43,674 nt of DNA, taken from IMG/VR virus record IMGVR_UViG_3300045988_068477, positions 1 through 43,674 of that record, one strand, 5' to 3'. Positions within the stretch are counted from its first letter, which is position 1. The number at the start of each line of letters is the position of its first letter. The notes beneath the pieces are model-generated. The model worked only from the letters and a program-made list of their open reading frames with translations. It searched no databases and was not told the DNA's origin. Positions 4,936 to 5,722 of the stretch are shown here, piece after piece. The DNA comes from a virus. The position numbers were made by a program, and so were the translations under genes.

Positions 4936-4961
4936 TCGTATATCGTAAATACATAAATACC

Positions 4962-4977
4962 TGTGCCAAATGGCACA
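4962..4977. promoter_or_regulatory. 16-bp palindrome TGTGCCA-AA-TGGCACA
   Basis: Perfect 7-bp inverted arms lie 27 nt after the XRE gene stop. It could be an operator or a small hairpin. Confidence 0.4.
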
Positions 4978-5003
4978 ACGAGAAACAGCAGATATGCGAA
5001 AAT

Positions 5004-5045
5004 GGGAGCGTGGGGGTGTATGCCCTTCGCTCCCACTTTATTTCC
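5004..5045 (+). terminator. candidate intrinsic terminator of the early operon
   Basis: Stem GGGAGCG (5004-5010) pairs with CGCTCCC (5028-5034), followed by ACTTTATTT. Confidence 0.5.
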
Positions 5046-5693
5046 ATCCTCCCTCCTTCACATGGCGGGGGTGGCGGCGGTGCAGCCGCTGCCCCTACTG
5101 TGTGCAATATGCCGCACGGCTGAAAACCACCCGATAAACTGGGCGGAGGGTCGCGCCCTTCATGCGGCAACCAGCCTGGTATGTAAGGCGAGAAGTCCGG
5201 GACGACACCGGACGGCAGGCCATAGAGGAAAACTGTGACCAGCCAAACAACAACGTGTTTTGCTCCAAAGGCCAAGGAGCTGACACCCCGGAAAGACGGG
5301 GGCATGCGGAACCTGGGACGGGGTGGAATTCGTCGCTTAACCGAAAGGGGTAGAGATCGCAAGTTCAAATCTTGCAGGTTCCTATGACTGTGGAAAGACA
5401 CTATACCGGCAACCCAAGAGCGTCTGACGGGCCCGGAGAAGGTACTGGACGCCCGCCTGTCATAGAGGCGGAAGCAGTGGCACTATGACGTCCACTGAGT
5501 GTGCCGACACATAGAAAGCGGCTGCGCCCGGCGGAGCGTGTAGAGACGGAATCCGCCCATCGCTGGGTCGCTCCCATCCGTGTAAGCCGGACGCATAGCC
5601 AAGCGATAAGAGCCAGCGCTATCCCGCTGAAAACTGCCGTGCTGCCTGTATACGGGCCTCCCGCAACGGTGTGACAATCTAAGCGGGAAGCGC
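5046..5693 (+). ncRNA. candidate very large structured RNA (family unassigned)
   Basis: No credible ORF in a genome with otherwise overlapping genes. Many perfect short helices with GNRA-like loops. G.U-containing helices (5068-5078/5085-5095 and 5426-5432/5455-5461) form only on the plus strand. A 12-bp closing helix lies at 5616-5628/5682-5693. Confidence 0.5.
5308..5383 (+). ncRNA. tRNA-like element without an anticodon loop
   Basis: Acceptor stem GGAACCT/AGGTTCC (7 bp), D arm GACG-GGGTGGAATT-CGTC, and T arm GCAAG-TTCAAAT-CTTGC are all perfect. The anticodon-arm position holds only a CC-GAAA-GG capped stub. Position 8 is G and no CCA is encoded. Confidence 0.6.
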
Positions 5694-5721
5694 AAATAAA
5701 AACCGCCCCACGAGGGGGCGG
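5694..5721 (-). terminator. intrinsic terminator of the minus-strand operon
   Basis: Minus-strand reading is CCGCCCCC-TCGT-GGGGCGG followed by TTTTTATTT, 2 nt after the AP2 gene stop. Confidence 0.8.
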
Positions 5722-5722
5722 A

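Follow-up and report, generated by a model that had tools for sequence, protein, structure and literature searches.

A candidate modular RNA island linked to tRNA genes in temperate gut phages

The IMG/VR virus record IMGVR_UViG_3300045988_068477 (positions 1 to 43,674; this whole stretch of 43,674 nucleotides (nt) is called the window below) comes from a human-gut phage that has only distant relatives among deposited phages. We find that a gap between genes at 4936-5722 of this record contains a conserved block, at about 4992-5700, whose modules carry compensatory base changes and are present, absent or exchanged independently of one another, and that the tRNA genes near this block lie on its strand and are interchangeable with some of its modules. 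The reading that we favour, with moderate confidence, is that 4992-5700 is a plus-strand non-coding modular RNA island of a temperate gut phage, with linked modules in a precursor that is probably cut.

A family of loci with exchangeable modules

Relatives of the block were gathered by BLAST and then by scanning IMG/VR for patterns made from conserved pieces. The family comprises at least 195 loci, with at least 196 instances of the unit that we call domain C, in IMG/VR contigs, two Flavonifractor plautii phages and a Muriventricola genome. The BLAST matches to the F. plautii phages, Castelnaud and Chenonceau, are partial, and in both phages the RNA is found at the equivalent position, between a 'transcriptional regulator' gene and the HNH, terS and terL genes. 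A genome scan with an 18-mer that had 3 degenerate positions yielded, among the 120 matches listed, 118 chance matches and 2 real ones (L076 and L165; L numbers denote loci), contributing the Muriventricola aceti genome and one metagenome-assembled genome, a yield from which the host range is under-sampled. With F. plautii and M. aceti as anchors, the hosts are therefore gut Oscillospiraceae.

The homology of other loci to the window begins at 4992-4999, and BLAST divides the window's copy into blocks that are present or absent independently: the leader (4992-5107), domain A (5108-5170), an insert (5171-5383), domain B with the K1 and K2 hairpins (5384-5489), a variable module (5490-5612) and domain C (5613-5700). 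The features within these blocks are listed below, with minimum free energy (MFE) values where single segments were folded.

4995..5003, plus strand: an uncertain extended -10-like motif, TGCGAAAAT, at the 5' edge of the conserved block
5004..5034, plus strand: H1 hairpin, GGGAGCG/CGCUCCC, followed by a U/C-rich tract (MFE -23.7 kcal/mol, z = -5.1)
5035..5059, plus strand: pyrimidine-rich linker CCUCCCUCCUUCAC, which resembles an anti-Shine-Dalgarno sequence; its ..CCUCCUU.. is kept in homologs
5060..5103, plus strand: H2, a long hairpin with its core at 5068-5078/5085-5095 (MFE -31.5 kcal/mol, z = -4.5)
5110..5173, plus strand: domain A, a 60-nt mini-cloverleaf followed by ACCA (the MFE structure is the cloverleaf)
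5171..5383, plus strand: optional 213-nt insert, delimited by BLAST, with hairpins at 5195-5213, 5262-5280 and 5286-5301 and with TLS-2
5308..5382, plus strand: TLS-2, a tRNA-like cloverleaf (cloverleaf as MFE structure, z = -2.8)
5390..5452, plus strand: domain B, made of PB0, PB1 and pseudoknot PB2, with compensatory changes
5453..5471, plus strand: K1 hairpin, CCGCCU, loop GUCAUAG (5459-5465), AGGCGG, with a co-varying stem
5475..5497, plus strand: K2 hairpin, CAGUGG/CCACUG, whose loop contains CUAUGAC (5483-5489), complementary to the K1 loop
5499..5615, plus strand: optional variable module, with hairpins at 5499-5557 and then a second domain-A-like unit ending in ..GCCA
5616..5693, plus strand: domain C, the most widely conserved unit (MFE z = -3.1)

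The order of the modules is fixed across loci (leader, A, TLS, B, K1, K2, C). The span of domains A to C is as short as 212 nt and as long as 687 nt, the window's 603 nt being among the largest, and some loci (L167, L198) have the leader and domain C only. We found no linkage of domain A variants to the classes of the domain C distal hairpin, which reassort freely. A preliminary description of the gap had proposed one plus-strand RNA of about 650 nt; this now looks less likely, since modules are present, absent or swapped independently and no long-range helix or co-variation was found to join the modules from domain A to domain C.

The frames of domain C are 89-98% identical in nucleotide sequence to that of the window, compared to 36-77% for the flanking XRE proteins, 50-89% for TerS and 82-93% for TerL, a comparison that carries an ascertainment bias for loci fetched by patterns within the frame. 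The exact domain C 18-mer is present in 34 of the 45 loci that were fetched by other patterns.

In the leader, homologs recurrently have TGnGA(A/C)AAT or TAAAAT at the position of the -10-like motif. The L166-type loci have a canonical, strong promoter of the sigma-70 type, TTGATT-18-TGgTATAAT, at this same position directly upstream of the island, and because of this promoter the L166-type island would be its own transcription unit. The sequence of H1 is kept in L001, L002, L003, L009, L031, L187 and L216; the H2 slot always holds a hairpin, but one of variable sequence, with unrelated hairpins in L001, L031, L200 and L216. The ..CCUCCUU.. linker is also present in L166, which is without H1. 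H1 could be either the terminator of the upstream operon or the 5' stem of the RNA.

Base pairing across the family

The description of this region as dense in helices is upheld by folding, which is well below the shuffles: the plus strand of 4936-5722 folds at -328.6 kcal/mol (z = -5.95, with 0 of 20 shuffles as good), and the minus strand gives a z of -3.91. When the sub-segments were folded singly, 8 of 11 had z values from -2.4 to -5.1; the weak single folds are those of domain A (z = -1.7), 5499-5558 (-1.5), 5556-5612 (-0.8) and the domain B segment (+0.8).

We wrote a structure with two pseudoknots for 23 aligned sequences, from domain A to domain C, and compared its pair counts with controls. 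In the proposed structure 87.0% of the cells are paired, compared to 40-47% when the partners are slid by 1-3 columns, and 14 pairs are changed on both sides, compared to 3-7 in the slid controls. The observed percent paired, numbers of compensatory pairs and cells, and covariation score were reached by 0 of 500 shuffles.

The clearest compensatory changes in the family structure are in PB1 and PB2. The PB1 hairpin (5406-5409/5433-5436 and 5413-5415/5429-5431) shows double changes at 4 pairs, for example from CCGG/CCGG to CCAG/CUGG. PB2 is a pseudoknot of the H type, formed by the PB1 loop GCGUC (5420-5424) and, downstream, GACGC (5448-5452); a CG pair is replaced by UA in 4 sequences and a UA pair by CG in 6, and GCGUC/GACGC becomes GUGCC/GGCAC or GCGCC/GGCGC. 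The small PB0 hairpin (5390-5392/5399-5401) has a UA to CG change in 1 sequence.

The K1 stem exists in the versions CCGCCU/AGGCGG, CCGACA/UGUCGG and CCGGUA/UACCGG, and the K1 and K2 loops are complementary over 7 nt, a complementarity that is kept in three sequence versions. One position of the loop pairing is A-U in the window, L009 and L184, G.U in most loci, and G-C in L200 and L262-type loci. In L076, L202, L216 and L218 both loops are different and still complementary (GCCUC/GAGGC), while loops taken from different classes are complementary over just 3 base pairs (bp).

We considered and rejected a helix offered by RNAalifold, in which AUGACNGUGG at the start of domain B pairs with the 5' strand and loop of K1: the K1 loop is changed in L076 and L218, where only the match of K1 to K2 is kept, and the upstream partner is missing in L202, L216, L009 and L184. 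Eight helices had been listed in the preliminary description, and all eight are complementary where it placed them. The one at 5068-5078/5085-5095 has 11 bp, of which 2 are G.U; those of 5 to 7 bp are free of mismatches; and the one at 5616-5628/5682-5693 has 12 bp with a one-base bulge, because of which an ungapped check gave only 8/12. The listed helix 5426-5432/5455-5461, although complementary, is incompatible with K1, PB1 and PB2, which are supported by comparison.

Domain C is closed by a helix of about 12-13 bp, formed by P1 (GCGCU/AGCGC) and P2 (CCCGCU/AGCGGG). Its internal loop, GAAAACU / GUGACAAUCUA, is almost invariant and is the most constrained feature of the family. The distal hairpin (5636-5670) is hypervariable: the 18 distinct versions found first are unrelated in sequence and 12-52 nt long, and those of a divergent subfamily are longer. 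In P1 we noted CG to UA and U-A to C-G changes, and in the divergent subfamily P1 is replaced, with P2 and the internal loop unchanged.

The variable module is found in L013, L017, L022, L166-type loci and L228; in most others K2 directly joins domain C. Its second domain-A-like unit has a closing stem, AUCGCU/AGCGAU (5559-5607), and a GGG-UCGCU-CCC hairpin, and the GGGUCGCNCCC-type hairpin recurs in the divergent subfamily with a co-varying stem. As a separate observation, GGG-UCGCN-CCC hairpins, in which a UNGCN pentaloop sits on a G-C-closed stem, are present in the window at 5567-5577 and 5145-5161 and, about 20-60 nt upstream of domain C, in L291-L324; the stem of the UCGCN pentaloop co-varies (CCGGG/CCCGG, CCUGG/CCAGG and UCAGG/CCUGA).

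tRNA genes and tRNA-like cassettes

Domain A has the outline of a small tRNA, with a 7-bp acceptor-like stem (5110-5116/5163-5169), a D-like arm of 2 bp, a 4-bp arm (5130-5143) and a T-arm-like hairpin, GGAGGG-UCGCG-CCCUUC (5145-5161). For 34 variants of domain A, RNAalifold recovers the acceptor-like stem, the small arm and the T-arm-like hairpin, with 4 compensated pairs. In L187 and L166 a tRNA-Ile(GAU) is found in place of domain A, directly after an identical leader, GUGUGCAAUAU. Judged by this shared leader and swap, domain A occupies a tRNA slot and is a putative RNase P substrate.

The insert that follows is missing from about 20 loci, in which 5170 directly joins 5384, and sub-blocks of 5260-5410 are common to another set of loci. 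A tRNA-like element embedded here had already been recognized in the preliminary description, and it is real: 5308-5383 on the plus strand scores 24.0 bits (E = 0.021) against the tRNA model RF00005, below the gathering score of 29. ARAGORN calls no tRNA in the window. As in tRNAs, TLS-2 has a 7-bp acceptor stem, GGAACCU/AGGUUCC, that abuts a 5-bp T-stem with a UUCRANY loop (GCAAG-UUCAAAU-CUUGC). Its anticodon arm does not conform: there is a weak stem with CCGAAAGG instead and no U33, CUUAACCGAAAGGGGUAG pairs poorly, an A occupies position 33, and the best local fold is a 3-bp CCG/GGG stem closed by AAA. Near-identical copies of TLS-2 in L028, L030, L031, L041 and L043 are called tRNA-Arg(ccg) by ARAGORN despite the defective anticodon arm.

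When ARAGORN was run on the oriented loci, tRNAs were found in 43 of 131. Every tRNA within 1.5 kb is on the same strand as the RNA, and several were confirmed by Rfam. A tRNA-Thr, tRNA-Gln or tRNA-Met lies 3' of domain C, after 'AGCGCACAUAU', and other slots of the island hold 'tRNAs' with impossible anticodon loops. From the co-orientation of the tRNAs and their swapping in slots we therefore conclude that the locus is a phage tRNA island, with mimics in some of the slots and with an RNA composed of domain B, the K hairpins and domain C (the B-K-C RNA) between slots. Because genuine tRNA genes fill the slots of tRNA-like modules in relatives, cutting into pieces is implied.

These data also bear on the strand of the RNA. 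The plus strand had been chosen in the preliminary description in part because G.U pairs in two helices would be A.C mismatches on the other strand, an argument that is weak alone; the strand itself stands, and is better fixed because the tRNAs are co-oriented and a T-loop is present in the tRNA-like element.

Several further elements were noted in these islands. ARAGORN reports tRNA-??? with 'anticodons' of 2 nt or 4 nt, otherwise near-canonical, in L182, L183, L190, L228, L239, L218, L235, L202 and L216; these cloverleaves sit in the islands 60-370 nt upstream of domain C and might be either tRNA mimics or tRNAs with an unusual way of decoding, for instance frameshift suppressors. Many loci have, in the interval from domain C to terS, units that run from 'AUAU|GCCG...' to '...GGCACCA' or '...GGCUCCA' (for example L005 at about 9280-9375, and L187 downstream of domain C), which resemble acceptor/T-arm minihelices in which the CCA is encoded; the window has none of them. 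An int-alpA RNA (RF02996, 50-52 bits) lies in or just 3' of the same non-coding island, and on its strand, in Chenonceau (L002 3431-3500) and two IMG/VR phages (L013 4543-4612 and L022 1278-1347). Small RNA motifs of several kinds appear to have gathered in the island.

Known RNAs, a proposed mechanism and its alternatives

We searched all 4227 models of Rfam 15, using the gathering score for the whole window and E <= 10 with permissive filters for both strands of 4850-5800. No family was found in 4936-5722, the sole noteworthy match being the sub-threshold tRNA at 5308-5383. Other matches below E = 10 are at chance level (Plastid-ycf2, SAM-VI with 17 bits, RyhB on the terminator described below, MIR528 and isrL), and Rfam 15 gave no match to ROOL, GOLLD, self-cleaving ribozymes, riboswitches, tmRNA, RNase P RNA, group I/II introns, HEARO, OLE, raiA or pRNA. 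In 10 homologous loci searched at E <= 0.05, ROOL and GOLLD are again missing, and only tRNA, int-alpA and gut-2 matches were found, outside the modules. A full-text literature search, with incomplete coverage that makes a prior description elsewhere possible, found no description of this RNA. The island fits no catalogued RNA family, and it is grouped with ROOL and GOLLD by setting and style. These two RNAs had been named in the preliminary description as the closest precedent, with a divergent member or a new class as the options: the tRNA-linked phage setting is indeed of the same kind, a divergent member is not supported, as neither covariance model matches even at E <= 10, and a new class was the right direction.

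ROOL (RF03087) is an RNA of several hundred nt that phages and prophages of Bacillota encode, often close to tRNA islands; it has many hairpins as well as pseudoknots, and covariation has revealed pairings between its loops (PMC12286853). The present RNA likewise occurs in a phage, with terS and terL present, near co-oriented tRNA genes. It differs from ROOL in having no RF03087 match in the window or the homologous loci, and in its cassette mosaic, its very variable length and its embedded tRNA mimics. GOLLD (RF01998) is a phage and prophage RNA beside tRNA genes; its 3' region is conserved and its 5' region variable, it has kissing loops, and it is expressed more strongly during phage-induced lysis; the loop pairings that covariation revealed in ROOL and GOLLD are intermolecular bridges (PMC12286853). 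There is no RF01998 match in the window or in the homologous loci, and domain C, the unit conserved in the present family, is much smaller at about 60 nt plus a hairpin; the architecture is also another. ROOL and GOLLD form homo-oligomeric RNA-only cages through intermolecular kissing loops and A-minor contacts, of which just the covarying complementarity of the K1 and K2 loops is seen here. In the work of Weinberg et al. 2009, GOLLD is said to be able to contain tRNA genes.

The tRNA cluster of phage T4 encodes species 1 and 2 (rnaC/rnaD), stable structured RNAs of 120-140 nt that are not tRNAs, are co-transcribed with the tRNAs and are released by tRNA-processing enzymes. We know of no pseudoknot or kissing loops reported for them. 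In general character they are the closest precedent for the mechanism proposed below, in another phage group and another host. In phi29 pRNA (RF00044), two loops with co-varying complementarity drive ring formation, which is linked to packaging. The present RNA lies upstream of terminase genes in many loci, but the likeness is limited to covarying loops: there is no RF00044 match, and the packaging system is of the TerS/TerL type, not the phi29 type. YrlA is a modular bacterial non-coding RNA, like Y RNA, that has a tRNA-mimic domain with an acceptor-like stem, T-arm and D-arm and also occurs in some phages (PMC4201824); its hallmarks are a stem that binds Ro60/Rsr and linkage to an rsr gene (no search for these was made here), and no Rfam family matched the present RNA.

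In the mechanism that we propose, the island would consist of parts that fold independently: a leader (H1, the pyrimidine tract and H2), then cassettes in tRNA slots, and then a non-tRNA RNA at 5384-5700, with domain A and TLS-2 as cloverleaf mimics that would lack a usable anticodon. The whole island would be transcribed as a single precursor, and host tRNA-processing enzymes would cut it, RNase P at the 'AUAU|G' junctions and 3' processing activities after the acceptor-like stems. Two kinds of product would result: the cloverleaf mimics, and the B-K-C RNA as a stable molecule with a length of about 320 nt in the window and 150-330 nt in relatives. The K1 and K2 loops may kiss, either within one molecule or between molecules, and the invariant loop of domain C may be the recognition site for a partner, be it a protein, an RNA or a ligand. 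Only tentatively would we extend this proposal and place the B-K-C RNA with ROOL and GOLLD, as a third class of phage RNAs that self-assemble, in which K1 and K2 would build a multimer, the tRNA mimics would recruit processing for lytic release, and the invariant loop would dock a tRNA, a tRNA-directed defence nuclease or a packaging protein.

Some of the alternatives involve the neighbours of the island, which are as follows.

4699..4935, plus strand: gene for a small XRE-type helix-turn-helix (HTH) protein (Pfam HTH_3), directly left of the gap
5703..5721, minus strand: intrinsic terminator of the gene at 5723..6181, CCGCCCCCUCGUGGGGCGG then UUUUUAUUUG on the minus strand
5723..6181, minus strand: convergent gene of the PHROG 'HNH endonuclease' family, right of the gap
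7237..7680, plus strand: terS-like gene, right of the minus-strand genes
7670..8911, plus strand: terL gene, downstream of the terS-like gene

The same modules could also be parts of a single giant ornate RNA, about 650-710 nt long in the window and built like ROOL or GOLLD, with the tRNA-like parts as structural domains. The fixed module order and the z of -5.95 for the whole stretch would fit such a molecule, and ROOL and GOLLD are also found near tRNA islands, with intermolecular kissing loops (PMC12286853). We consider it unlikely, though it retains appreciable weight, because the modules are independently present or absent over a size range of 212-687 nt, the variants of domain A combine freely with the hairpin classes of domain C, the leader and domain C occur alone in L167 and L198, and long-range helices or co-variation between modules are missing; furthermore, genuine tRNAs, which need excision to function, lie between modules or replace them. 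Less probable in our view is a cis-acting leader of the late (packaging) operon that acts on polymerase or on terS translation, such as an antiterminator of the HK022 put or Bacillus EAR kind, with H1 as the terminator that is overcome. The hairpin H1 is rich in G+C and precedes a U/C tract, and the RNA lies on one strand with a small XRE-type regulator gene upstream (71 of the 143 loci with enough upstream sequence) and with terS/terL homologs 179-3000 nt downstream (31/112 loci). This position upstream of terS on the same strand, predicted from sequence in many loci, is interrupted in the window, where 1.5 kb of convergent, opposite-strand genes and a terminator hairpin part the RNA from terS. 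Half of the loci are without a detectable XRE homolog, and such a leader gives no role to the interleaved tRNA genes, the hypervariable hairpins or the tRNA mimics.

If the island were non-functional debris, left in a phage tRNA island by tRNA pseudogenes in decay and by the scars of recombination, the resemblance of domain A and TLS-2 to degraded tRNAs and the recombination mosaic of the locus would be explained. We judge this to be very improbable, since helix pairing is kept at 87% with compensatory changes, the internal loop of domain C is invariant across subfamilies with unrelated flanks, the RNA frames are far more conserved than neighbouring protein genes, and features foreign to tRNAs, such as the UCGCN pentaloop, recur with co-varying stems. 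A DNA-level element, either an XRE operator in which the K1 and K2 loops are the inverted repeat or a packaging or replication site, has hardly any claim on our belief: GTCATAG ... CTATGAC is an inverted repeat beside a regulator gene and upstream of terminase genes, and palindrome half-sites would co-vary too, but each 7-mer lies in the loop of a hairpin with its own co-varying stem, the half-sites are 24 bp apart from centre to centre, and the pseudoknot and the hypervariable hairpins are left unexplained. Neither does the K-loop class follow the XRE type, the class II XRE proteins being 70-77% identical to that of the window and many class I proteins 38-58%. A hidden protein-coding gene can be practically dismissed, although there are mechanical open reading frames (ORFs) across the region, with 91, 109 and 196 codons, and three small hypothetical proteins are annotated in the homologous region of Castelnaud. 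As had been stated in the preliminary description, there is no credible gene in 4936-5722: Pfam and PHROG searches with the ORFs 4963..5238 (plus strand), 4811..5401 (minus) and 5401..5730 (minus) gave no match; their codon usage is non-coding, with log-odds of -0.05, -0.08 and +0.02, respectively, all below the minimum of 0.07 for the long ORFs of the window and the 0.09-0.15 of the flanking genes; and homologs of the gap region differ by cassette swaps and by frame-breaking indels of 12-52 nt, not multiples of three.

Several points weigh against the modular, processed plus-strand island that we prefer. In the window there is no plus-strand match to a sigma-70-type promoter upstream of the RNA, nor a plus-strand terminator with a U-tract. 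Even structureless sequences, if related, can exceed the shuffle control, there are few independent compensatory events per helix, and the kissing loops rest on about three; in the class III (type 2) loops, which are long, the 5-bp complementarity is not above the cross-class background. The count over the whole alignment, for which two helices were mis-registered in the structure line used, is 59 G.U cells versus 48 A.C cells and does not tell the two strands apart. In evolutionary terms the family is shallow, with nearly identical frames and with much of its variation consisting of cassette swapping. The model of a precursor that is cut is inferred by analogy with tRNA operons.

ROOL and GOLLD are large structured RNAs of phage tRNA islands with a puzzling function, and an unrelated, abundant class in phages of human-gut Oscillospiraceae would show the generality of such RNAs. 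The new family offers several handles: its cassettes keep the parts separate, a slot may be filled by a real tRNA or by a mimic, and the near-invariant internal loop is compact and resembles a recognition site. Castelnaud, whose host F. plautii is cultured and serves in gnotobiotic models (strain YL31 carries the prophage), has a minimal version of about 270 nt on the minus strand of ON453903.1 at about 22413-22684; tests of expression, processing, multimerisation and knock-out are therefore feasible.

Further observations concern the surroundings of the RNA. The terminator hairpin at 5703-5721 has no U-tract on the plus strand and, in BLAST against the loci, is common only to L007 and L008; it may mark the 3' end of the plus-strand RNA as well. 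The minus-strand cassette at 5723-7184, between the RNA island and terS, carries two unknown ORFs besides genes for an XRE HTH protein and for a DNA-binding protein of the HNH endonuclease family, and a terminator of its own; it looks inserted, because in L009 and L031 the island directly precedes terS. The same phage has another small structured RNA, gut-2 (Rfam RF02990), at 13600-13646 on the plus strand (53.9 bits, gathering score 39.8), of which a weaker copy (37 bits) is present in the Muriventricola locus, L165, at 1662-1709. In the early region, the ORF 3458..4267 (plus strand) has a Lar restriction-alleviation domain (PF14354, 29.5 bits) and is a possible anti-restriction gene. Finally, the small 'hypothetical proteins' called over this RNA call for a correction of annotation: in Castelnaud (L001 2926-3426, ON453903.1) three such coding sequences, WAK79708, WAK79709 and WAK79710, are annotated over the RNA locus and are probably artefacts of gene calling.

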